Virus genome (UHGV): UHGV-0045723
Length of the DNA: 44,729 bases
Direction: 5' to 3' (one strand)
From: a virus
This document shows positions 1-44,729 of this stretch, one piece after another. The position numbers and the translations under genes are program-made. Under the pieces are notes generated by a model that saw only the letters and a list, made by a program, of their open reading frames with translations, had not been told where the DNA came from and made no database searches. Each line of letters starts with the position of its first letter. The first letter of the stretch is position 1.

Positions 1-49
1 GAAACGGCTGGCTAATTCTGTACAGACTGTAATCTAAGGACGATAACGC

Positions 50-3000
50 ATGACATATCAGGCAATTTTCACTGGCTGGGATGATCTGACGATTGAAGAC
101 CTTCTGGTCGCTTACCGGAAAGCAAAAGCCGATAGCTTCTTTGAGAATACATTTCCTGTTGCTATCAAATTTGCCGAGTATGAGCAGGAATTACTTGAAA
201 ACCTGCAAAAACTCTTAGATCTTTTGCAGAGCGAAGATGGATTCAGTAGCAATAAGAAGTTGATTGGCAAATTTCGTTTGTTACCGAAAAAATTAACCAC
301 AAAGAAAAAACATGAATCCCAAAATGGACACGTCCACTTTTCTAATCCTAAACGAGCAGCCGACCATTTATTTAATAATTTTGATCTGATACCAGAGTTT
401 CGTATTATTGGTGACTTCCCGGTTGATAGTCACATTATCTCTGCACTATGGATTAACATGGTCGGGCATAAATTTGATGCCAGCTTAGATAACTGTTGCT
501 ATGGCGCGCGGCTAAAGCGTATTCGTAATGATGAATTATTTAGCAATGAGCAGGATAATCCATTCCATATCAGTGCCGTGGGTTCTTTTAGCCCCTACTT
601 CCAGCCCTACCAAAAATGGCGTGGTGATGGCTTAAAAGCTATACGTGACGAGTTGGAAAAAGATCGTGACATTATCGCCGCCTCACTGGATTTAAAAAGT
701 TACTATCATTTTATTGATCCACTGGCTATAACCTCTGATGATCTCTATAACACACTAAACATAAAACTGACTGAGGATGAAAAAGCGTTTACTGCACAGT
801 TAGCAGTATTCTTAAAGCACTGGTCTGACGGCGCAGCGGCATTTGGAAAGAAAATAGCGTACAAAACACCTGTTATTAATGGTGGTCTGGTCATTGGATT
901 AACAGCCAGTCGGATCATTTCAAATATATTGCTACACCATTGGGATAAATTAGTCATTGAAAAACTATCACCAATTCACTACGGTCGTTATGTCGATGAT
1001 ATGTTCCTTGTAATACGCGATACAGGGACAATTACTAATAATCACGAATTTATGTTATTGCTGCAAGATAGGCTTGGCAATGATTGCGTTTATTTGAAAA
1101 ACGAGCAAAAACAAATATGGCAAATACAGCAGGGCGAGCATTTCCAGGGTAAGACCACCATCCAGTTACAATCCGATAAGCAAAAACTTTTCGTGCTTCA
1201 AGGGAGGGCTGGAATAGACCTGCTCGACAGTATCGAAAAGGAGATCTACGAGCTTTCTAGTGAACACCGCTTGATGCCTTCACCGGATCAACTGGAACAC
1301 TCCACCGCAGCTAAAGTCCTTTCCGCTGCCGGTAGTGTAGGTGAAAATGCCGATACTCTGCGCCGTGCGGATGGATTAACCATTCGTCGTTTGGGCTGGT
1401 CACTGCAATTACGCTACGTTGAAACACTGGCACGAGATCTGCCTCCAAGTGAATGGAAAGAACAGCGGGAAGAGTTTTATCAGTTTGCCTACAACCATAT
1501 TCTTAGGGCTGATAATCTATTTGCACATTTTAGTTATCTGCCAAGGCTGCTTGGCTTTGCTATCAGTATGAATGAATGGCAGCACGCGGAAAAAATTGTA
1601 CTTAAAGCTTACGAATCCATCAACCTGTTGGCATCGGTGATTACTTCAGGTAAGGAAGTGAATATAAATGGTTGCAAAACTCGAGCAGTAAATGATCTTT
1701 GGCGCTGTATAAAAGGCACATTAAGCTGGCTATTTGTTGATGCAGCGACACGATATTACAGTCCTGACAGATTATTTCTTGATAAACGTTCAAAGAAAGA
1801 AGAGTGCCTTGCGGATACATTTTTTAATCATATTTCACAAAGTCTGACGAATCTAAAGGATTTACTGGATCTTCGCTTTGATTCAGCAGATTTTTATTTA
1901 AAAGCGCCATTGGTAGCTCGAGCTGATTTAGCAAAGGAACCTTATAAACAGATCGTAAAGAGTCAGTCGGCAGAAAAACTTGTTAATCAGCGTGATAGTA
2001 AAAAAGAAGTTAAAATACTGAAATTAATGAGCGACTCATCGCTTATTGATATTGACGTTATTAAGCTATTTTTGAAATCAACCAAGAATACCCGACTGGA
2101 AAAAGTGGCTAAAGGAAATCGTAAAAACGAAAGTTACCTACCTTACATTTTCCCTACACGTCCTTTAACACCCGCTGAAATATCAGAACTGGCCCCCGAA
2201 TGTGTTGGATTACCCTCCACATCCGACAAAAAACCAGATGAGAGACCGTCCACCATTTGGGCAAAATATACTCAAGCATTACGCGGAGTATGGATCAAAC
2301 CGACGTTGCTAGCATCGGAGCAGGACTCAGATGAAGCGACAAAAAAAGCTCGGCCTAAGAAATTCATTCATATTGGCACAGACAGGAAACATAAAGTTGT
2401 CGTTGCGCTAACCAGCATTAAAACAGAGGAGGACGACTGGGCTAAAATGGCCTGCAATAAATCTAACTTGTCCCGTTCAAGGTACCAGCGGATTTCTGAA
2501 CTGGTTAATGCAACATTGAAACTATCTCCTAAACCTGATTATGTTTTATTCCCTGAGCTTTCAATCCCGTTACGCTGGGTTAACAGTATTGCTGATCGTT
2601 TGAGTTCGGCGGGTATCAGTCTAATTGCGGGAACAGAATACCGCCACTTAGACGATAATCAACTGAAGAGTGAGGCCGTACTTGTCCTTTCAGATAACAG
2701 ACTCGGCTATCCAGCGAGTGTCAAAATATGGCAACCCAAGCTGGAACCCGCCGTAGGTGAAGATGAGGCATTATTTTCAACTTATGGTAAGTCTTGGGAT
2801 TCGACACTTAATGTTAAACAACGTAAGCCGGTATATATTCATCACGGCGTCAATTTTGGCGTTATGATTTGCTCTGAACTCCAGAATAGTAAAGCGAGGA
2901 TCCGTTTTCAGGGCGCACTCGATGCATTAATGGTATTGAGCTGGAATAAAGATCTAGATACGTTTGCATCGTTGATTGAATCAGCAGCGCTGGATATTCA

Positions 3001-3259
3001 TGCCTATACTATTTTAGTGAATAACCGAAAATACGGCGATAGTCGCGTACGTTCCCCGGCAAAAGAACCCTTTATGCGTGATATTGCTCGTGTGAAGGGC
3101 GGTGATAATGACTTTGTGGTCGCTGCAACGCTGGATATCGACTCGTTAAGGGCATTTCAGAGCAGGGCAAAACGCTGGCCTAAAGGCGGCGATAAATTCA
3201 AACCGTTACCTGAAGGATTCCAGTTGGCAAAGAACCGCAAAAAGCTACCGCCAAAATAA
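50..3259 (+). CDS. Defence-type (UG/Abi) reverse transcriptase fused to C-terminal nitrilase domain; DRT type 1 (UG1)-like
   Basis: 1069-aa ORF; RT motif C YVDDMF (HYGRYVDDMFLVIRD) in N-terminal half; C-terminal half has nitrilase-superfamily Glu/Lys/Cys context (VLFPELS, KIWQPK, VMICSELQ). Confidence 0.85.
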   Translation: MTYQAIFTGWDDLTIEDLLVAYRKAKADSFFENTFPVAIKFAEYEQELLENLQKLLDLLQSEDGFSSNKKLIGKFRLLPKKLTTKKKHESQNGHVHFSNPKRAADHLFNNFDLIPEFRIIGDFPVDSHIISALWINMVGHKFDASLDNCCYGARLKRIRNDELFSNEQDNPFHISAVGSFSPYFQPYQKWRGDGLKAIRDELEKDRDIIAASLDLKSYYHFIDPLAITSDDLYNTLNIKLTEDEKAFTAQLAVFLKHWSDGAAAFGKKIAYKTPVINGGLVIGLTASRIISNILLHHWDKLVIEKLSPIHYGRYVDDMFLVIRDTGTITNNHEFMLLLQDRLGNDCVYLKNEQKQIWQIQQGEHFQGKTTIQLQSDKQKLFVLQGRAGIDLLDSIEKEIYELSSEHRLMPSPDQLEHSTAAKVLSAAGSVGENADTLRRADGLTIRRLGWSLQLRYVETLARDLPPSEWKEQREEFYQFAYNHILRADNLFAHFSYLPRLLGFAISMNEWQHAEKIVLKAYESINLLASVITSGKEVNINGCKTRAVNDLWRCIKGTLSWLFVDAATRYYSPDRLFLDKRSKKEECLADTFFNHISQSLTNLKDLLDLRFDSADFYLKAPLVARADLAKEPYKQIVKSQSAEKLVNQRDSKKEVKILKLMSDSSLIDIDVIKLFLKSTKNTRLEKVAKGNRKNESYLPYIFPTRPLTPAEISELAPECVGLPSTSDKKPDERPSTIWAKYTQALRGVWIKPTLLASEQDSDEATKKARPKKFIHIGTDRKHKVVVALTSIKTEEDDWAKMACNKSNLSRSRYQRISELVNATLKLSPKPDYVLFPELSIPLRWVNSIADRLSSAGISLIAGTEYRHLDDNQLKSEAVLVLSDNRLGYPASVKIWQPKLEPAVGEDEALFSTYGKSWDSTLNVKQRKPVYIHHGVNFGVMICSELQNSKARIRFQGALDALMVLSWNKDLDTFASLIESAALDIHAYTILVNNRKYGDSRVRSPAKEPFMRDIARVKGGDNDFVVAATLDIDSLRAFQSRAKRWPKGGDKFKPLPEGFQLAKNRKKLPPK

Positions 3260-3421
3260 GAAACTGATTTTCGCTATTAATAATCAGGGTATTTTTGCGT
3301 GAGATGTCGGTAAACATGATGTAGCCCTTGCCACTCATGACCAATCGCAGTATCTTTCTCCCGCGCCTGCAAAATCAGGCGTCGGGATTAGCCTCCTGAA
3401 GAAATCTTATCGGCGACACAT

Positions 3422-3442
3422 GACGCGCCAGCGTCTTTTTTT
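3422..3442 (+). terminator. Putative rho-independent terminator downstream of RT-nitrilase gene
   Basis: GACGC-gcca-GCGTC hairpin followed by a run of 7 T. Confidence 0.4.
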
Positions 3443-3605
3443 GTGTTGTTCGCACGGTTACATCTCAATGGTGGGCCGGGCGGGGGCGGCGCAAGACGCG
3501 CCAGTGTCCGATAAGGCTGGTAAGGCTAACCCTGCCCGGTTCCACCACCCGCGAGATTAGCCTCTCCGGTGGTGGCTTGAACACCCACTTATCGGAGGTT
3601 GCCCT

Positions 3606-4076
3606 ATGGCTACAATCCTCACCACTGACAGCGATTTACTCGATCTATTGACCGTCCCCTTCAATGCCACCACGGATTTCACTGTCCTTGCTGACTACTG
3701 CGCCCGCTTTGCCGAAACCCTGATTGAAACCGACGATCCAGCGCTACGACTGGCGCTCTGCGGGCGGCTTCACGCGGCTCTTGCGCTACTGCAACCCACA
3801 CTACACGACCCCATCCCACCGCATCTTACCGAAAGCCTGACCGTGGATACCCTTCCCGCCACACCAGAGCACTTTATTTCCGAACCTGATTCCTTGTGCG
3901 AATACTGCCTCGCACTACTCCAGCTTCTGCTGGAACGTCCGGCGGAACCAAAAATGGAGCAAACCCTGACCGGGCTGCTGTGTGAGCTGGTCTGGAATTT
4001 CACGGAAGGACTCAAATCCCCGCGCTGGCTGCGTACCGCCGACGGCGTAAAATTTATCAGTGAGGTGGCCGCATGA
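3606..4076 (+). CDS. Hypothetical protein (island cargo)
   Basis: 156-aa ORF, GC-rich, no recognisable motif; an overlapping antisense ORF exists so strand is uncertain. Confidence 0.35.
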
Positions 4077-4200
4077 TGCAACAGGACTGACATTCCGCCG
4101 ACATTATTGCGGTGCTGAAAAAGCGGGGAACGCCTCTGGCGGCACAGAGAAAAACTCATTGCGGAAGCGCTGTAAATATCGCCAGAAATCATCTGGTCCT

Positions 4201-4428
4201 CAAGGTACTTTGATAGCAAAGGCAAGCTGGCTGGTTCAGTCCGGAGTCTCTCTTCTTGCACTTAAAGAGATGGGAGGATGGGAAACTCTTGAAATGGTTC
4301 GTCGTTAGGCTCACCTTTCAGCCAGGCATTTCACCGGGCACGCGAGCAAAATCGATGCGATTATAAGTCGCAATGGCACAAATACGGCACAAGAGGAGAA
4401 CGTGGTGTATTTAAATATGGGGTAACTA
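4201..4428 (+). pseudogene. Tyrosine integrase C-terminal remnant (in-frame stop)
   Basis: Translation [28 protein letters not shown]-stop-AHLS... parallels the C-terminus of the intact integrase at 43516-44679 ([37 protein letters not shown]). Confidence 0.6.
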
Positions 4429-4486
4429 CTTGATTTTAATGGTGCCGATAATAGGAGTCGAACCTACGACCTTCGCATTACGAATT
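4429..4486 (-). repeat. att-type direct repeat: 3' ~47 nt of tRNA-Thr(CGU) plus short flank
   Basis: tggtgccgataataggagtcgaacctacgaccttcgcattacgaat matches the tRNA-Thr 3' end through the anticodon and diverges at the anticodon stem; a near-identical copy starts at 44694. Confidence 0.7.
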
Positions 4487-4705
4487 ATAAGAATCCGCTT
4501 CTAATTCAAAGCATTACCCCATCAACACTGCGCTCACACGTCCCACCACATCAAAACATGTAAAGCCTTGCAAGCCATTGTGAGGCCTTATGTGTCTCAG
4601 TTTTGTCCCACTACGACCTGCACAGAAAATAAGAAAATAGCGGTGATATCAAACAGTACAGAAGTCTTTTTTCTTTCAAATGGAGAAACTGATTAACCCG
4701 TTTAA

Positions 4706-4933
4706 TTGTACTCCTCATGGGTAATCAGCAGTCCTCAGAGTAATGGAATGGCAGAAAGGTTCGTGAAAACGATGAAGGAAGTCTACATCGCGTTCATGCC
4801 GAAACCGAATGTAAGAACGGCATTGCATAATCTTGCAGTGGCGATCGAATATTACAATGAAAACCATCCGCACAGTGCGTTGGGTTATCGCTCTCCGCGA
4901 GAATATCGACGTCAGCGGGTAACGTTAACTTAA
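4706..4933 (+). mobile_element. IS3-family transposase (OrfB) C-terminal fragment
   Basis: 75-aa fragment with [14 protein letters not shown] and [17 protein letters not shown], typical of the DDE transposase C-terminus; no upstream catalytic region. Confidence 0.6.
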
Positions 4934-4974: not shown

Positions 4975-5727
4975 TCAGATTCCCTGGTGAGTAAGAATTT
5001 TACTTTCTGAACTCCTCTGAGAGTATTGACTTGGAGAAACACCAAAATAACGTCTAAATACATAAGTAAAGTATGAGACACTGGCATAACCACAGACCTT
5101 AGCTACTTTACTAATAGGATAACAACGAGTGCTGAGTAAATATTCAGCCATTTGCATCCTCTCATCAAGTATGATCTTACTGAATGATACCCCCTCTTCT
5201 TTCAATTTCCTCTTTAGTAAACTTTCGCTGAGATATAATCTTGATGATATATCCTTAAGACGCCATGGTGCAGATAAATCCGTATGAATAATCGTTTTAA
5301 CTTTAGCCCCTGTGCTTTTCAAACATCCAAACAGAAATACTCCAAATTGTTTTTCAGAAGAAAATGCAGAGAGACATGTAAAAGCAATAGACTCATCAAA
5401 AATTTCTATGTATTCAGCACAGTGATTAGCCCAACTAATTAATCCTTTAATTAAACTGAAGTCAGCAAAGTTTATTTTTAAATAAGATGGATATTCCCTA
5501 CAATCAGAAATATCCCTTAAGTTATTAGCTTTCAAATAGCGACTAATAAACTCAGCGCCAAAATCCGCCACTATCACTCTTTCAGGATATGTCAGGAAAA
5601 AATCTCTAGAGCTAGAGTCGACAAGTACAGATGAACCTCTCTCCAGAAACACACTCTCTTTTCCGAAATAAACATCAAAGGACTCCAAAATCAATATAAC
5701 TGAACATGTAGTTGCCATATCATCCAC
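4975..5727 (-). CDS. AraC-family transcriptional regulator
   Basis: 250-aa ORF in AT-rich DNA; C-terminal dual HTH (ISKVAKVCGYASVSYFTYVFRRYFGVSPSQY). Confidence 0.8.
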   Translation of the reverse strand: MDDMATTCSVILILESFDVYFGKESVFLERGSSVLVDSSSRDFFLTYPERVIVADFGAEFISRYLKANNLRDISDCREYPSYLKINFADFSLIKGLISWANHCAEYIEIFDESIAFTCLSAFSSEKQFGVFLFGCLKSTGAKVKTIIHTDLSAPWRLKDISSRLYLSESLLKRKLKEEGVSFSKIILDERMQMAEYLLSTRCYPISKVAKVCGYASVSYFTYVFRRYFGVSPSQYSQRSSESKILTHQGI

Positions 5728-6446: not shown

Positions 6447-7316
<870 letters not shown>

Positions 7317-7376: not shown

Positions 7377-7931
7377 TCATTTATCTCCGACCGGAAACTT
7401 CTTATACAGTGTCGATATACCAACATCATAGATGATCGCCACCTTCTGGCGAGGAACGCCTGATGCAATTAATCGTCCGGCCTGCTCCCATTGTTCTGGT
7501 GTAAGTTTGGGACGACGTCCACCAATTCGTCCCTGTGCGCGAGCTGCTTCCAGTCCAGCTTTTGTTCGTTCAACAATCAGTTCACGCTCCATTTCAGCCA
7601 GGGCACCCATCACATGAAAGAAAAAGCGCCCCATTGGGGTACTGGTATCAATTGAATCCGTCAGACTACGAAAGTTGATGCCTCGTTCGCGCAACTCCTC
7701 CACCAGCACGACAAGATGCCGCATACTGCGCCCCAGTCGGTCCAGTTTCCAGACCACCAGCGTGTCACCTGCCGATAATGTCCTGAGCAGCTTTTTCAGT
7801 CCTGGTCTGTCGGACTTTGTACCGCTTATCTTGTCTTCAAAAATCAGCTCACATCCTGCACAGTTCAGCGCATTACGTTGTAGATCGGTATTCTGGTCAT
7901 TTGTTGATACACGTATATAGCCAATAAGCAT
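7377..7931 (-). CDS. Serine recombinase / DNA invertase (Gin/Cin/Pin/Hin family)
   Basis: MLIGYIRVSTNDQ catalytic-serine N-terminus, resolvase core, C-terminal HTH; adjacent to invertible tail-fibre segment. Confidence 0.9.
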   Translation of the reverse strand: MLIGYIRVSTNDQNTDLQRNALNCAGCELIFEDKISGTKSDRPGLKKLLRTLSAGDTLVVWKLDRLGRSMRHLVVLVEELRERGINFRSLTDSIDTSTPMGRFFFHVMGALAEMERELIVERTKAGLEAARAQGRIGGRRPKLTPEQWEQAGRLIASGVPRQKVAIIYDVGISTLYKKFPVGDK

Positions 7932-7985
7932 GTTAAATCCCCCTGGTAAAAGCAGGAATGATGCCATTTGCTTGTTATTTCTTCA

Positions 7986-8011
7986 TTTTCATAAACGTTG
8001 GTTTGGGAGAA
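7986..8011. repeat. Invertase crossover site (gix/cix-like), left copy
   Basis: Reverse complement ttctcccaaaccaacgtttatgaaaa; first 14 nt identical to the copy at 9813-9838, in inverted orientation. Confidence 0.7.
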
Positions 8012-8413
8012 GGCTCTGCATTACCCGTAGGTGTGCCTGTTCCGTGGCCTTCAGTCACACCGCCAACAGGTTGGCTGAAATGCAACGGTGCAGCTTTTTC
8101 TGCCGAAGAGTATCCGGAACTGGCAAAAGTTTATCCGACAAATAAATTGCCAGATTTACGCGGCGAATTCATTCGTGGGTGGGATGATGGAAGAGGAATT
8201 GATTCAGGACGGACTCTCCTGTCTGCTCAGGACGGGAGCATTGAGGCACACGGCCATGATTACAATGGGGCCATCTATACTTCTAGCGGTCCTTCCTGGG
8301 CTAATACGACGGATGCGGGACACCGGGCATATTCGGGATTTACATCATCATATGGCGGGAGTGAAACCCGTCCACGAAATATTGCATTTAACTTTATCGT
8401 GAGGGCTGCATAA
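8012..8413 (+). CDS. Alternative tail-fibre C-terminal segment (silent orientation of invertible segment)
   Basis: PVGVPVPWPSVTPPTGWLKCNGAAFSAEEYPELAKVYP...NIAFNFIVRAA resembles lambda Stf-type fibre C-termini; reading frame joins GLGE at the crossover site. Confidence 0.65.
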   Translation, partial: GSALPVGVPVPWPSVTPPTGWLKCNGAAFSAEEYPELAKVYPTNKLPDLRGEFIRGWDDGRGIDSGRTLLSAQDGSIEAHGHDYNGAIYTSSGPSWANTTDAGHRAYSGFTSSYGGSETRPRNIAFNFIVRAA

Positions 8414-9015
8414 TGGATAACGCCGTATTAAATAGCGAGCTTATTGCCACGAAGGCGGGGAATATTACCGTCTATAACTATGATGGTGAAACTCGGGAAT
8501 ATATTTCCACTTCAAATGAATATCTTGCCATTGGTGTCGGTATCCCTGCATATTCCTGTTTAGATGCCCCTGGCACACATAAGGCGGGTTATGCTATCTG
8601 CCGTTCGATGGATTTAAACTCATGGGAATATGTGCCAGACCATCGCGGTGAAATCGTTTATAGCACCGAAACAGGAGAATTGAAAGAAATCACAGGTCCG
8701 GGTGATTATCCTGAAAATACGACCACTATCGCCCCGTTAACGCCATACGATGAATGGGATGGTGAGAAATGGGTGACGGATACCGAGGCACAGCATAGCG
8801 CCGCAGTAGATGCAGCAGAAGCACAGCGCCAGTCGCTTATTGATGCTGCTATGGCTTCCATCAGTCTGATTCAACTGAAATTGCAGGCCGGACGGAAGTT
8901 GATGCAGGCAGAAACAACTCGCCTTAACGTTGTGCTGGATTATATCGACGCGGTGACGGCAACAGATACCAGCACCGCGCCGGATGTCATCTGGCCTGAA
9001 CTGCCGGAGGCGTAG
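8413..9015 (+). CDS. Tail fibre assembly protein (alternative copy)
   Basis: 200-aa ORF directly after the alternative fibre segment; C-terminal TDTSTAPDVIWPELPEA mirrors TSTAPDIEWPTPPA in the minus-strand copy. Confidence 0.7.
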   Translation: MDNAVLNSELIATKAGNITVYNYDGETREYISTSNEYLAIGVGIPAYSCLDAPGTHKAGYAICRSMDLNSWEYVPDHRGEIVYSTETGELKEITGPGDYPENTTTIAPLTPYDEWDGEKWVTDTEAQHSAAVDAAEAQRQSLIDAAMASISLIQLKLQAGRKLMQAETTRLNVVLDYIDAVTATDTSTAPDVIWPELPEA

Positions 9016-9430
9016 GCCATTCAATATCGGGGGCTGTTGAAGTATCAACACGCATCAGCAGCACACGGTATTTCTTCCATTGGGTGAGAGTTGAAGTTTC
9101 TTCATCAGTTGCAATGCCCGCATCAACAGCATCCTGACGCCAGGATATTTCACTGTCAGCTTTTGCACGAAATGTGGCTTTCATGTTTTCTGCATCTGAT
9201 ATTTTCTGTTCTGGTGAAAGCGGCGGCTCATCAACCCATGCAAGGGCCCCTGAAACCATTCCCAGCATTTTTCCTGTTGGCTTATTTCCCCCATTAAATC
9301 TGACAGCATCCTCATCGCTGATTTCAATACCATCCTGCGGCCATGTCCCCTCCTTGATATAACTTTCGTATAGCGCTGCGTTGTAGATTGCATTTTCGGA
9401 AGGGCTGTAAACACTTTTAACTTTATTCAT
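8987..9430 (-). CDS. Tail fibre assembly protein (active orientation)
   Basis: 147-aa ORF immediately downstream of the tail-fibre gene on the same strand. Confidence 0.7.
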   Translation of the reverse strand: MNKVKSVYSPSENAIYNAALYESYIKEGTWPQDGIEISDEDAVRFNGGNKPTGKMLGMVSGALAWVDEPPLSPEQKISDAENMKATFRAKADSEISWRQDAVDAGIATDEETSTLTQWKKYRVLLMRVDTSTAPDIEWPTPPAVQAR

Positions 9431-9434
9431 TCTG

Positions 9435-10115
9435 TTATCTCCCTTTCGCTATATAGCAAAGATTAAACCCACCGCTACCTGACATACGGGCTGTAAAACC
9501 CGTTCTTGAAGTACCAGTTGAGTTAACTCCATAAGCAGGCATGGTTGTTGGAGAAAGCAGAGACTCCTGGATATCTGCCATTGTCAGTGTAATTGATTCG
9601 ACCCGCGCGGGGAAAGGTAGCGGGAAAACAACATTCGTCCCTGTCTGTCCAACGGGGAAACCGAAAATACCCCATTGTGTAATTACCCCATCCGGCCCCT
9701 TACTCCATCCAGATTTAGGATTCGGCCAGTCTGCTGCTCCAGAGTGCCCCGTTGTAAAACTACTCATATCTGGTACTTGCCCGGTATCCGTTCCGACGTT
9801 CCTCGTTGCCGCTTCTCCCAAACCAAGGTTTTCGAGAGCCGTTTTCACCGTGCCATCCGATTTGATATCGCCAAACGGATTCTTGCGGCTTAACAGCAGC
9901 GCACGAAGCGCGGTAAGCAGCTGGTCGTGCCGCGCCTTCTCCAGACTGGCACCGGATGCCTCCACCACGCTACAAAGTTCTTCCTGCAACATGTCAAAGT
10001 AGTCATCATCCAGATCGGTGGCAGGTGTGCCGGTCTGGGGGTTACCACGGGTAAAACCGTTCTTACCCGCGCCGAACTTATCCTTCTGCGCGGTTTTCGT
10101 GTCTATACGATGCAT
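9435..10115 (-). CDS. Tail fibre protein (constant N-terminus + invertible C-terminus)
   Basis: 226-aa ORF; crossover site lies inside the coding sequence at the ENLGLGE position. Confidence 0.75.
9813..9838. repeat. Invertase crossover site (gix/cix-like), right copy
   Basis: ttctcccaaaccaaggttttcgagag; two 12-bp half-sites around a central dinucleotide, inside the tail-fibre gene. Confidence 0.7.
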
Positions 10116-30442: not shown

Positions 30443-31618
30443 ATGGATATAACTTGTTTAGAATGTGGCAATGTTCTTGACGACCCAACTGTAGCTTGCG
30501 ATAAATGCGGTGCCACGCCTCATGTTGTAGTGCTGGGCAAACAATCGTACTTTCCTATTGGTGCTGTAACAGCAAATCTTGAAAAAAATGATTCAAGAGC
30601 ATTTGATTATCGATTAGGTGAAGTTTGGGATCTAAAAAATGAAGTCACATCTGAATTCATAACCAGAATTGAGAAAAAATTTAGCCGAAAAAACAAATTT
30701 CATAACTTCCTAGACTCAGATCACAACCCTTCATCCATTCCTACGATCCTAAAAAAATACATTAATAAAAATAATGAATTCATTGATTTATCTAGAGCTA
30801 TAATAGAGAAGCTTAAACATAATGCTAATAACGAATCGAGAGTTGCCCAACTTCAGGGGGGGAGCGTTGTTTTCATCCACTATAAGTCTACCGAACCAGA
30901 GGATTTGGGGAAACTTCTAATCGTAATGGTTGATAAACAAAGCGCCTATGACTTTGATTCGGATAAGTTGACCCCAACAAGATTAAATCCAATTAATACC
31001 GATGCCTTACGGCAGGCTGCGATGTTCGATTTAACTTTATTCGAAGCCAGTTATCCAGAAAACAAGGGTGACTCATATGTACATTTCTTGCAAGGTAAAT
31101 CTAAAAGCGATTTTTTCAAAGACTCATTAGGTTGCCGACATGATTCGGACAATAAAAGAAGCATTCAGCAATTATTCAGTGCTATAGATATTTTTGCTAG
31201 TAAAAACTCACTCGGTCGTGTACTGCGTGATACTATTGACAATGAAGTTAAATCCTTACTGGAAAAAAAATCAAAAGATAAACACGGAAATAAGTCCGTT
31301 AAGATAGAGGATATTTCAAAAATAATTGACTCATGCCTGACTGATTCACACAAATGTAAGGGAACGTTTGTCGATTTTGTTAATCTTAATGGTTTCCAGA
31401 TTGACCCTCAATTTGAACCAACTCCTAAAGCAGCTGAAAGCGCGCTTACAATTGAAGTGGCAGATAACGACAATAATTTTAAGTTGAAAATAATGCGTGG
31501 AGCTATTGGAGACGAAAAGTCAAATAAGCCTGTAATTCTCACTGACAACAAATGCGAAATTGTGATAAAATTGAGTCAGGCAAATTATGATGAACTCAAA
31601 AGATATAGAGACAGCTAA
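30443..31618 (+). CDS. Zinc-ribbon protein with NdpA/YejK-like (NA37) nucleoid-associated domain; candidate defence gene A
   Basis: 391-aa ORF in AT-rich DNA; N-terminal CLECG-x12-CDKCG; central GGSVVFIHY, LLIVMVDK, YVHFLQGKSKSDFFKDSLG resemble E. coli YejK as I remember it. Confidence 0.7.
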   Translation: MDITCLECGNVLDDPTVACDKCGATPHVVVLGKQSYFPIGAVTANLEKNDSRAFDYRLGEVWDLKNEVTSEFITRIEKKFSRKNKFHNFLDSDHNPSSIPTILKKYINKNNEFIDLSRAIIEKLKHNANNESRVAQLQGGSVVFIHYKSTEPEDLGKLLIVMVDKQSAYDFDSDKLTPTRLNPINTDALRQAAMFDLTLFEASYPENKGDSYVHFLQGKSKSDFFKDSLGCRHDSDNKRSIQQLFSAIDIFASKNSLGRVLRDTIDNEVKSLLEKKSKDKHGNKSVKIEDISKIIDSCLTDSHKCKGTFVDFVNLNGFQIDPQFEPTPKAAESALTIEVADNDNNFKLKIMRGAIGDEKSNKPVILTDNKCEIVIKLSQANYDELKRYRDS

Positions 31619-31620
31619 TA

Positions 31621-32835
31621 ATGACAATTGCTGATGACTTATCAAGATTAGCGCAGATTATTAACGGAGCCTCAAGCAGAGTTGAGGGCTACTACACTGT
31701 CATAAGTCTTGAAGAAAGCATTGTTATTGTAAATAGTTCTGAAATAATTAGACTGTTACAATCTATAGGTTATAAAAAGGCAACAACCTGCATCGAAAAT
31801 AATGAAATTTGGCTAGATCGCCAAGCTTCATCTTGGGATGACGCTATAATTTATGAGAATGTTGAGTCTTTTTGGTCTAGAGTAAACACCCAAAACGCTC
31901 TTCCGAAAAATTATATCATCGGAACGCCGTTAATACTCCCTACTTCTAAGAATGAAAGCATCGAAAAAATCCATATTTTCTTTATGTGGAAAGATATCCT
32001 TTCATTAATTGCTGATCATCATAACAGTGACTGCTCTGTCTTATTTTTCACCAATGAAGACAAAAGTTATACAGTCGAACTCACGCATTTTTTACAATAT
32101 AGCGAGATTAATCGCTTATCGAACTCGTCTCTTAAATATGAAATTATAAAGGAGCTTCTCGACACAATAAAAATCAATGATTTACACAAAAGCGAGCGCA
32201 AGCTCGTTATACGCTCAGCCATAAACGAAGTATTTAAAGCAAATGGTACGTTCAATTTCTTTGACTTGCTTAACTCTACTGAACTCGTCAGGAAAAAATA
32301 TGATGAACTATATGAGATTTACACAAAGAGGTTTTCTGTAAATAAAATTCTTAACGAACTCGATGAGAAAAATCTTGAGTTCACGAGTAAAATTAACGAA
32401 TTCATATCATCTAATCAGACAAAAGCATTGACTATTCCCGGTGCATTAATAGCAGCTGGTGGCTTAGTGAAGGCTAATGAAACAACCGAAGCAATATTGA
32501 TTATCGCAGGACTTTGGATGATAAAAAAAGTCAATTACATTTCTATTGAGATATTCAATGAAACATTCGACAACTTACGTTCTCGAGTGGAGTCCGCTTT
32601 CGATAAGTATTTAAAGTTTGAAGAAAATAAAGAAATCAAAGATAATGCAGATAGTATTAAGAGTAGCATTACAGGTTTGATTGATAAAGCTAAAAAAAGG
32701 ATGAGAACTGTTAAATATCTCGCATCAGCCATGTTTTATGGAGGCCTTATTTACGTTGGATATAAACAGTTCCCAGTCTTTTTTGAAAAATCGGCAGTAA
32801 ATCTATTTTATTTTTTATGCCATACTATAAGCTAA
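31621..32835 (+). CDS. Membrane protein with helical N-terminal domain; candidate defence gene B
   Basis: 404-aa ORF starting 2 nt after gene A stop; hydrophobic helices ALTIPGALIAAGGLV...ILIIAGLWMI and YLASAMFYGGLIYVGY. Confidence 0.7.
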   Translation: MTIADDLSRLAQIINGASSRVEGYYTVISLEESIVIVNSSEIIRLLQSIGYKKATTCIENNEIWLDRQASSWDDAIIYENVESFWSRVNTQNALPKNYIIGTPLILPTSKNESIEKIHIFFMWKDILSLIADHHNSDCSVLFFTNEDKSYTVELTHFLQYSEINRLSNSSLKYEIIKELLDTIKINDLHKSERKLVIRSAINEVFKANGTFNFFDLLNSTELVRKKYDELYEIYTKRFSVNKILNELDEKNLEFTSKINEFISSNQTKALTIPGALIAAGGLVKANETTEAILIIAGLWMIKKVNYISIEIFNETFDNLRSRVESAFDKYLKFEENKEIKDNADSIKSSITGLIDKAKKRMRTVKYLASAMFYGGLIYVGYKQFPVFFEKSAVNLFYFLCHTIS

Positions 32836-42984: not shown

Positions 42985-43289
42985 TGACCACTTTTACCGA
43001 CAAAGAACTGATTAAAGAAATTAAAGAGCGTATCAGCAGCCTTGACGTGCGAGACGATATTGAGCGCCGTGCTTATGAAATCGCACTCCTATCTCTGGAA
43101 GTAGAACCAGATGAACGCGAAGCTTATGAATTATTCATGGAAAAGCGTTTCGGTGACTTAGTAGATCGTCGGAGAGCAAAAAACGGCGATAACGAATACA
43201 TGGCATGGGATATGACTCTCGGTTGGATCGTCTGGCAGCAACGAGCTGGTATCCATTTTTCAACAATGTCACAGCAAGAGGTGAAATAA
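42984..43289 (+). CDS. YfdT-like protein
   Basis: 101-aa ORF; stop overlaps the next start. Confidence 0.6.
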   Translation: MTTFTDKELIKEIKERISSLDVRDDIERRAYEIALLSLEVEPDEREAYELFMEKRFGDLVDRRRAKNGDNEYMAWDMTLGWIVWQQRAGIHFSTMSQQEVK

Positions 43290-43639
43290 TGGAGCCATAC
43301 AGCCTCACACTCGATGAGGCCTGTCATTTTCTCAAGATATCCAGACCGACTGCCATTAACTGGATACGCACAGGGCGTCTTCAGGCAACACGCAAAGATC
43401 CCACTAAGAATAAATCTCCTTACCTCACAACACGACAAGCCTGCATTGCGGCTCTTCAGTCTCCGCTGCATACTGTCCAGGTGAGCGCGGGTGATGGCAT
43501 AACAGAGGAAAGAAAATGTCACTCTTCCGCAGAGGTGAAATATGGTACGCCAGTTTCACATTGCCGAACGGTAAAAGATTTAAACAGTCTCTTGGAACAA
43601 AGGACAAAAGGCAGGCGACAGAACTCCATGACAAGCTAA
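43289..43639 (+). CDS. Excisionase-like HTH protein
   Basis: N-terminal [31 protein letters not shown]; directly upstream of and overlapping int; 3' end uncertain. Confidence 0.5.
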
Positions 43640-44679
43640 AGGCTGAAGCATGGCGGGTCAGCAAACTTGGTGAAATACCTGATATAACGTTCGAGGAAGC
43701 GTGTGTCAGGTGGCTTGAAGAGAAAGCACATAAAAAATCACTGGACGATGACAAAAGCCGGATCGGATTCTGGCTTCAACATTTCGCAGGAATGCAACTA
43801 AGAGACATTACTGAATCAAAAATTTATTCAGCAATGCAGAAAATGACGAACCGGCGTCATGAGGAAAACTGGAAACTCAGGGCAGAAGCATGCAGAAAAA
43901 AAGGGAAACCTGTTCCAGAATACACGCCAAAACCAGCGTCCGTTGCAACGAAGGCTACGCATCTTTCATTTATAAAGGCCCTACTAAGAGCCGCAGAGCG
44001 TGAATGGAAAATGCTGGATAAGGCACCAATTATTAAAGTGCCTCAACCAAAGAATAAACGGATCCGCTGGCTGGAGCCTCATGAAGCACAAAGGCTGATT
44101 GATGAATGTCCGGAGCCATTAAAGTCTGTTGTTGAATTTGCACTGGCAACAGGCTTAAGACGCTCGAACATCATCAACCTTGAATGGCAACAAATAGATA
44201 TGCAGCGCCGGGTGGCATGGATAAACCCGGAAGAGAGTAAATCAAACCGCGCAATTGGCGTTGCGCTGAATGATACTGCATGTCGCGTATTGAAAAAACA
44301 AATCGGGAATCATCACCGTTGGGTATTTGTGTACAAGGAAAGCTGTACCAAACCAGACGGAACGAAAGCGCCAACAGTCAGGAAGATGCGGTATGACGCA
44401 AACACAGCCTGGAAAGCGGCGCTGAGACGAGCTGGTATTGATGATTTCAGATTTCATGACTTGAGACACACCTGGGCAAGTTGGCTGGTTCAAGCCGGTG
44501 TCCCGTTGTCAGTGTTACAGGAAATGGGAGGCTGGGAGTCTATCGAAATGGTTCGTCGATATGCTCACCTCGCACCTAATCACCTTACCGAACACGCACG
44601 GCAAATAGACTCGATCCTGAACCCATCGGTCCCAAATTTGTCCCAGTCAAAAAATAAGGAAGGTACTAATGATGTGTAA
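43516..44679 (+). CDS. int: Tyrosine integrase
   Basis: 387-aa ORF with C-terminal [40 protein letters not shown]; ends 14 nt from the tRNA. Confidence 0.9.
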
Positions 44680-44693
44680 CTTATTGATTTAAA

Positions 44694-44729
44694 TGGTGCC
44701 GATAATAGGAGTCGAACCTACGACCTTCG
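44694..44729 (-). tRNA. thrW: tRNA-Thr(CGU) 3' end, truncated by window edge
   Basis: tggtgccgataataggagtcgaacctacgaccttcg is the reverse complement of the tRNA-Thr T-arm/acceptor end with CCA. Confidence 0.7.

Follow-up and report, generated by a model that had tools for sequence, protein, structure and literature searches.

The left junction of the analyzed DNA is, as judged by alignment, the ordinary attL of an SfIV-like prophage in the tRNA gene thrW, lying beside an older island and a dead integrase stub. The window, by which we mean the whole analyzed stretch of 44,729 nucleotides, carries the island at its left end, the prophage over most of its length and the 3' end of thrW at its right end. 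It is very probable that at this attL the SfIV-like phage came to lie beside an already decayed composite, that at least three successive integrations occurred at the one tRNA gene, and that the stub now forms a repeat of ~200 bp of the prophage int gene. The stub most likely marks a third element, almost fully deleted, and would not be the integrase of the island that carries the DRT gene. The coordinates of all features are collected in Table 1.

Table 1. Features of the window at and around the two prophage junctions
Feature	Position	Strand	Basis
Variable cargo slot of the old thrW island	1-3326	+	Backbone comparison with strain 2/0
Predicted UG5 RT-nitrilase (DRT) gene, 1069 aa	50-3259	+	PADLOC RT_UG5-nitrilase
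Small "ash family" gene	3396-3560	+	PGAP annotation of the identical MS 69-1 and VCSW5 loci
156-aa hypothetical gene	3606-4076	+	PGAP annotation of the identical MS 69-1 and VCSW5 loci
Ner-like HTH pseudogene	4072-4225	+	Aligned to the intact 84-aa homologue of isolate SC418 (L010 10686-10940)
Putative deletion junction, GGCAA microhomology	4221-4225		HTH homology ends at 4225, integrase homology starts at 4221
Integrase remnant, last 68 codons of a P22-family tyrosine integrase	4222-4425	+	Alignment, Pfam, PGAP
46-nt thrW 3' fragment (tRNA-Thr CGU, positions 31-76), attL core	4440-4485	-	Junction alignments
P' arm of the prophage attachment site	4486-4610		~125 bp near-identical to SfIV attP
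SfIV/SfII/SfI/SfV-like myovirus prophage, ~40.2 kb	4486-44691		Nucleotide identity to Sf phages, annotation of identical loci
Excisionase-like HTH gene, overlapping the start of int	43289-43639	+	Pfam HTH_17, E 3e-8; SfIV record and MS 69-1 annotation
Intact tyrosine integrase of the prophage, 387 aa, oriented toward thrW	43516-44679	+	PF00589
attR core and 3' end of functional thrW	44692-44729	-	tRNA from 44694, truncated by the end of the window

The initial annotation had described positions 4201–4486 as a diverged copy of the right-hand junction and had proposed a pairwise alignment of the two as the check. Local alignment of 4201–4439 with 44440–44692, with the tRNA part left out, gave a score of 57. 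The chance level was 9.4 ± 1.3 in 500 shuffles (maximum 14), and the maximum among 1000 random window segments was 15. The similarity is therefore far above chance, and the description held with slightly refined coordinates. Positions 4201–4220 belonged to a Ner-like HTH pseudogene, integrase homology began only at 4221/4222, and the tRNA fragment ended at 4485 rather than 4486, the latter base being phage DNA already. In the right copy the integrase tail occupied 44475–44679, with its stop codon at 44677–44679, and was followed by a spacer of 14 bp; a spacer of 14 bp also separated the remnant from the tRNA fragment in the left copy. Of the right-hand tRNA, the first 36 nt from 44694 onward fall within the window. 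Between the two integrase tails, identity was 61% without gaps over 204 nt and 148 of 224 columns with gaps, falling from 72% in the first 102 nt to 51% in the last 102 nt. At the protein level, 36 of 68 residues matched (53%). The att core AATGGTGCC...CGCATTACGAAT (...ACGAAT) is an exact 48-bp repeat, with its left copy at 4438–4485; of the right copy, the window contains 38 bp, all identical to the left. In the matching record of Escherichia coli MS 69-1 the right-hand tRNA was complete, a 76-nt tRNA-Thr(CGU), which is thrW, followed by proA and proB. ARAGORN detected no complete tRNA anywhere in the window, and ARAGORN and Rfam detected no functional tRNA at the left copy. No Rfam families and no unusual promoter or terminator signals were found at the tRNA fragment and its surroundings.

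Integration was analyzed with a four-way alignment of SfIV attP, the prophage-free thrW region of VCSW5 as attB, the left junction of the window and the right junction of MS 69-1. The left junction equaled the island–thrW junction of VCSW5 through ...CGCATTACGAAT and then continued into ~125 bp of the SfIV P' arm. The right junction consisted of an SfIV-type int arm and the core, after which came the 5' half of thrW. The identical block opens at the 5' edge of the anticodon loop (tRNA position 31) and extends through CCA. The direct repeats on either side thus equal the 3' part of the tRNA, attR contains a regenerated tRNA, and attL and attR are reciprocal recombinants of SfIV attP and VCSW5 attB, as in Campbell-type integration. 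A 46-bp attP has been reported for SfIV, SfI and SfV, with thrW as the site used (PMC3851460). On the basis of the alignment and the published SfIV attP, 4438–4485 was assigned to attL, the sequence from 44692 onward to attR, and 4486–44691 to the prophage. This bears out the earlier proposal that the prophage had inserted into the tRNA between thrW and older DNA. In mechanistic terms, the P22-family Int of the incoming phage recombined the 46-bp core of attP with its identical counterpart at the 3' side of thrW, which extends from the anticodon loop to CCA. The 46-nt piece of tRNA displaced in this way stayed at the far end of the prophage, and a complete thrW was rebuilt beside int.

The prophage integrase matched PF00589 over its full length (1–171/172, E 3.2e-48) and contained the motifs GLRRSN, HDLRHTW and RRYAH, so that the catalytic domain is complete with Arg, His-x-x-Arg and Tyr. 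Its amino acid identity was 100% to SfIV, 98.5–99.5% to SfV, SfI and SfII, and 90% to the P22 group (ST64T, L, BTP1), which places it, by similarity, among the P22/SfV-family tyrosine integrases specific for thrW. In the SfIV record an excisionase is annotated at the same position as the HTH_17 gene, and both int and the xis-like gene of the prophage appear intact. The segment 4487–29000 was 97% identical at the nucleotide level to the Sf phages SfI, SfII, SfIV and SfV over 55–72% of its length, with the match beginning at the first query base, position 4487. The annotation of identical loci includes tail, head, terminase and lysis genes.

Several further features of the prophage were recorded. 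Directly after the P' arm, where SfIV has O-antigen modification genes, lie an IS3-family transposase remnant (rve_3, 4706–4933) and, on the minus strand, an AraC-family regulator (4975–5727). The same cargo region next to attP, the gtr slot of the Sf phages, contains a GIY-YIG gene on the plus strand (6492–7316), which matched the PD-T4-3 defense profile almost end to end (PADLOC E 2.7e-140) and LEM-3_GIY-YIG in Pfam. A Pin-type invertase adjoins an invertible tail-fiber segment (7377–10115). Both orientations of this segment are present in the MS 69-1 assembly (NZ_CP146678.1, L004), that of the window in "plasmid unnamed3" and the other in the chromosome. The window and the MS 69-1 chromosome differed by 129 bp somewhere inside the prophage. 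The 64-kb "plasmid unnamed3" was considered as an excised circle of island plus phage. This was rejected on account of its many frameshifts and the absence of int; it contains a chromosomal stretch with ykgR, ecp and pao genes to the middle of the prophage and is most likely an assembly artifact. A two-gene insert on the plus strand (30443–32835), opposite to the surrounding phage genes, encodes a 391-aa protein of the NA37 nucleoid-associated family and a 404-aa protein for which no match was found in Pfam or PADLOC. The insert is possibly a moron or an unrecognized defense pair.

The remnant at the left junction lacks everything N-terminal of its 68 codons, including the His-x-x-Arg box (~316 codons compared with an intact 384-aa integrase). 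A TAG codon (4306–4308) occupies the position of the catalytic tyrosine, converting RRYAH to RR*AH, and the natural stop codon is TAA at 4423–4425. With the internal stop read as Tyr, the remnant matched profile positions 137–170 of PF00589 with an E value of 8.8e-6 and a score of 26.0 bits, slightly below the cut-off of 27.1 bits. Since the tyrosine, the His-x-x-Arg box and the N-terminal domains are missing, the remnant can have no recombinase function; with its integrase homology and the loss of essential parts it is a pseudogene, and PGAP already labels it "integrase; internal stop; incomplete." The Ner-like gene upstream of it is also damaged: TGA stands in place of a Trp codon, the gene has an internal deletion and another stop, and the last ~12 codons are gone. 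The pentamer GGCAA is shared, in that the HTH homology closes with it and the integrase homology opens with it. This join of a truncated Ner-like gene to the stub carries what appears to be the signature of an illegitimate deletion.

The island to the left of the stub is a mosaic of conserved backbone and variable cargo. The product of the DRT gene matched PADLOC PDLC03780 (RT_UG5-nitrilase) over residues 1–1068 with 1034 bits and an E value of 0, and a Pfam search of the 1069-aa protein gave no match. By this profile match the gene is a real UG5 RT-nitrilase, with a predicted role in defense. A UG5 system is reported to be active in Sinorhizobium (PMC13436386). The 156-aa gene product matched nothing in Pfam or PADLOC. 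In BLAST comparisons between loci, the AbiE side and the side from ash to the stub were 93–94% identical to the ST131-type GI-thrW (described in PMC3203889) of strain 2/0; the cargo slot held the DRT gene in the window versus a type I restriction-modification (R-M) system in strain 2/0, and homology of the backbone to other alleles resumed at position 3327. The conserved right-hand module of ash and the 156-aa gene (3396–4076) was represented by 988 records that covered at least 80% of 3300–4215. A pair of 156-aa gene and Ner-like HTH gene was also observed, with 67–71% nucleotide identity, at the edges of Rhs/PAAR toxin islands elsewhere in E. coli (L010 10228–10940 and L011 10262–10973, the latter adjoining a tRNA-Asn gene). 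The pair appears to be a recurrent module of island ends.

At the opposite end of the island the situation differed between strains. In strain 2/0 the same backbone begins, distal to thrW, with another thrW fragment (L013 3288–3342), followed by a 439-codon pseudogene of a P4-type integrase that reads inward; directly outside this distal thrW fragment lies an integrase tail of the SfIV/P22 type. TUM13936 retains the last 224 bp of the P4-type integrase. In MS 69-1 the distal integrase is wholly gone and a ykgR fragment abuts AbiEii. An integrase of its own beside an att of its own, as in P4/CP4-6-like islands, is therefore absent from MS 69-1 and is present as a pseudogene in strain 2/0. A third att copy to the left of the island was sought in MS 69-1, VCSW5 and TUM13936 with a 32-mer allowing up to 3 mismatches and with the best ungapped match to the 48-bp core, and nothing above shuffles was found. 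Within 9.4 kb in MS 69-1, the best match to the core of a distal att was 24 of 48, the level of shuffles, and alignment of the left island boundary with the att junctions gave no homology. Att copies of its own delimit the prophage. The old island has no distal att within 9.4 kb in this lineage, its relative in strain 2/0 has one, and the boundaries of the island in the lineage of the window are drawn from other strains by comparison. The layout of strain 2/0 recurs in K-12 CP4-6, where intF lies distally next to a thrW fragment. IntF of K-12 was considered as a distal integrase of the GI-thrW type and rejected, with an identity of only 22%. Outside the distal thrW fragment of CP4-6 in K-12 MG1655 (L014 38100–38300), we observed an unannotated ~68-bp tail of an integrase of the stub type, and this K-12-like scar is present in many genomes.

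The closest intact relative of the stub was the integrase of a thrW prophage in 81EVA, with 92.6% nucleotide identity and 61 of 68 identical amino acids, compared with 61–66% nucleotide identity to int of the prophage in the window. The 81EVA prophage is a P22-like podovirus with a P22-type capsid, gp4, gp10, ejection proteins and a tailspike. This strain (L005, L015; NZ_CP138397.1) is a natural double lysogen at thrW with the opposite order: the P22-like podovirus, which has the integrase of the stub type, lies next to thrW and is followed by a thrW fragment and an SfIV-like myovirus. The integrase of this myovirus and that of MS 69-1 share one protein accession.

The survey of complete E. 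coli genomes addressed the comparison with one-element genomes that the initial annotation had proposed. VCSW5 and many others have the island only, in the order AbiEii/AbiEi, 1069-aa gene, ash, 156-aa gene and the same stub against an intact thrW, followed by proA. In raw counts, in which many genomes may come from few clones, the segment 4080–4439, including the truncation junction between the Ner-like gene and the integrase, was at least 99% identical in 530 records. A flank of stub, full thrW and proA was found at a query coverage of at least 80% in 894 genomes, a count that may include intact integrases of the same type, since no more than the final 204 nt of the integrase were part of the query. 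The tandem junction of integrase tail, core and Sf-type P' arm was found in only 44 genomes, ~17 of them at an identity of at least 98%. The stub was at least 99.9% identical in strains without the prophage, and the same truncation occurred in prophage-free genomes of several diverged alleles. Because the stub is incapable of integrating anything and its truncation is shared by prophage-free genomes, the prophage is taken to be the later arrival. This agrees with an experimental double lysogen in which SfX was followed by SfI, the two phages lying in tandem at thrW with the second next to proA/thrW (PMC3306764). Occupancy of thrW varied among related genomes, which contained the island only, the tandem, a chimeric scar, two live prophages or CP4-6. 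With many genomes carrying the island only and few carrying the tandem junction, the data support an independent acquisition of the DRT gene, itself assigned by the UG5 profile match, and the prophage, as had been proposed earlier.

The simplest history of the site comprises four steps. First, thrW would have received an island carrying a P4-type integrase at its distal end, and a P22-like phage would then have integrated between the island and thrW. A deletion at GGCAA would have removed the right end of the island, the intervening att copy and all of the phage except 204 bp of int. The P4-type integrase of the island and the distal thrW fragment were presumably lost separately at the left end. 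The SfIV-like phage finally integrated beside the decayed composite, which consisted of the AbiE toxin-antitoxin, the UG5 DRT, ash, the 156-aa gene, the Ner-like pseudogene and the 204-bp integrase tail. The intermediate state, an island with an intact right end, an att fragment and a P22-like prophage, was not found in any genome, and so we infer rather than observe the step of the third element. In every allele examined the stub accompanied the backbone of the island, and it could have traveled with the island as part of one mobile unit.

Three other explanations were weighed against this history. According to the initial annotation, only two elements were ever involved, and it was the AbiE/DRT island's own integrase that decayed into the stub. 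The stub does always adjoin the module of ash, 156-aa gene and HTH gene of the island, and it sits where P22-family elements keep int, proximal to thrW. However, in strain 2/0 the opposite end of the same backbone has a P4-type integrase together with a separate thrW fragment, and TUM13936 retains a stub of that integrase; moreover, it is in a P22-like podovirus that the stub has its closest intact relative, and the join of the stub by microhomology to a truncated gene indicates illegitimate deletion and not decay in place. These three observations led us to favor a third element, and we regard the two-element version as unlikely. The notion of an older island with a decayed integrase was therefore not upheld for this stub, a P22-family tail.

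The reverse order, in which the prophage came first and the island with its integrase later entered the fragment at the prophage attL and then decayed, is formally conceivable: the core is present in attL, which would permit secondary integration there, and the arrangement of the genes alone gives no order. It is nevertheless highly improbable in view of the identical truncation junction in hundreds of prophage-free genomes and several diverged alleles, a truncated integrase that lacks Tyr, the position of the later phage next to thrW/proA in the Shigella experiment, and a prophage Int identical to that of a living phage. The least probable explanation, to the point of being negligible, is that the left copy arose by duplication and divergence from the int–att end of the prophage, or resembles it by chance. 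Nothing but the similarity itself speaks for it; it had already been refuted by the alignment score, about 38 standard deviations above shuffles, and it is contradicted by the much closer match of the stub to another integrase and by the near-identical stub in strains without the prophage. The preferred reading remains that of a third element, once located between the island and thrW and since deleted almost entirely.

Chimeric stubs were found in EC21Z-151 and B20105. They have the same GGCAA junction and are clean chimeras, of the stub type of the window up to 4266 and of the SfIV int type from 4269 to 4429, with 62 consecutive informative sites. The chimeric stubs lie at L012 2423–2626 and L009 9143–9346, corresponding to window positions 4222–4425, with a single crossover at 4266–4269, and the switch falls in the conserved block coding for EMGGWE..EMVRRY. 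At a query coverage of at least 80%, the chimera was present in 260 complete E. coli genomes, again as a raw count. As a direct repeat of ~200 bp of the incoming int, the stub could recombine with it and thereby delete the prophage. The most economical reading of the chimeras is that they arose by homologous recombination between stub and int, in which the prophage would have been deleted and the scar rewritten; gene conversion is the alternative. It is conceivable, with a probability we would put slightly below even, that integrase-tail scars act more generally as homology anchors that allow the loss of each new P22-family prophage independently of Int and Xis, with the scar rewritten as a chimera each time. 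If so, the scar in any E. coli lineage would record which type of phage last occupied and left thrW, and the chimeras in the 260 genomes would be the first read-out. Two alleles of thrW itself were observed, in L012 and L005 versus the window (4449/4463). They differ by a compensatory T-stem pair, U-A versus G-C (GATAATAGG...CCTACG versus GATAAGAGG...CCTCCG). As the whole T-arm lies inside the 46-nt segment that comes from the integrating element, the thrW allele may track the last integrant.

The junction is ordinary in kind and leaves the current understanding of tRNA-targeted integration unchanged. Integration of P22/SfV-family phages into thrW, tandem lysogeny at this site and the role of thrW as a hotspot in E. 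coli are already established, and tRNA hotspots collect mobile DNA by the well-known route seen at the left junction. The layering of the site and the chimeric scars are details of modest interest. The analysis provides exact boundaries for the prophage. Given the PD-T4-3 match of the GIY-YIG gene, the thrW locus combines AbiE and a UG5 DRT on the island with PD-T4-3 on the prophage. The DRT/AbiE island and PD-T4-3 reached the locus by separate events, and the defense cluster of the strain is therefore a product of accretion and not a single unit. The stub is also an example of how annotations of the type "integrase, partial" can mislead with respect to the element of origin.

The prophage resembles the Sf phages SfIV, SfII, SfI and SfV at thrW in its 46-bp attP core, its P' arm and the position of int and xis beside attP, with an Int identical to that of SfIV, as well as in its Mu-like tail, its HK97-like head and the site in thrW next to proA. 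It differs from them in its cargo, since gtrA, gtrB and the type-specific gtr of the Sf phages are replaced by the IS3-family remnant, the AraC regulator and the PD-T4-3 gene, and in its host, which is E. coli rather than Shigella flexneri, the host of the serotype-converting Sf phages. CP4-6 and the ST131 GI-thrW are likewise islands at the thrW hotspot, with the integrase distal to thrW beside a thrW fragment, and GI-thrW shares with the window the backbone from AbiE to ash, the 156-aa gene and the stub. Unlike both, the copy in the window has no distal integrase or att, and in place of the type I R-M system of GI-thrW it carries the UG5 RT-nitrilase. The window also shares its arrangement with the SfX plus SfI double lysogen (PMC3306764), with two tandem elements, a copy of att between them and the later one nearest to thrW/proA. 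The older neighbor in the window, however, is a 204-bp integrase stub fused to a decayed island and no live phage. The natural counterpart of that tandem is 81EVA, in which a P22-like and an SfIV-like prophage are separated by a thrW fragment.
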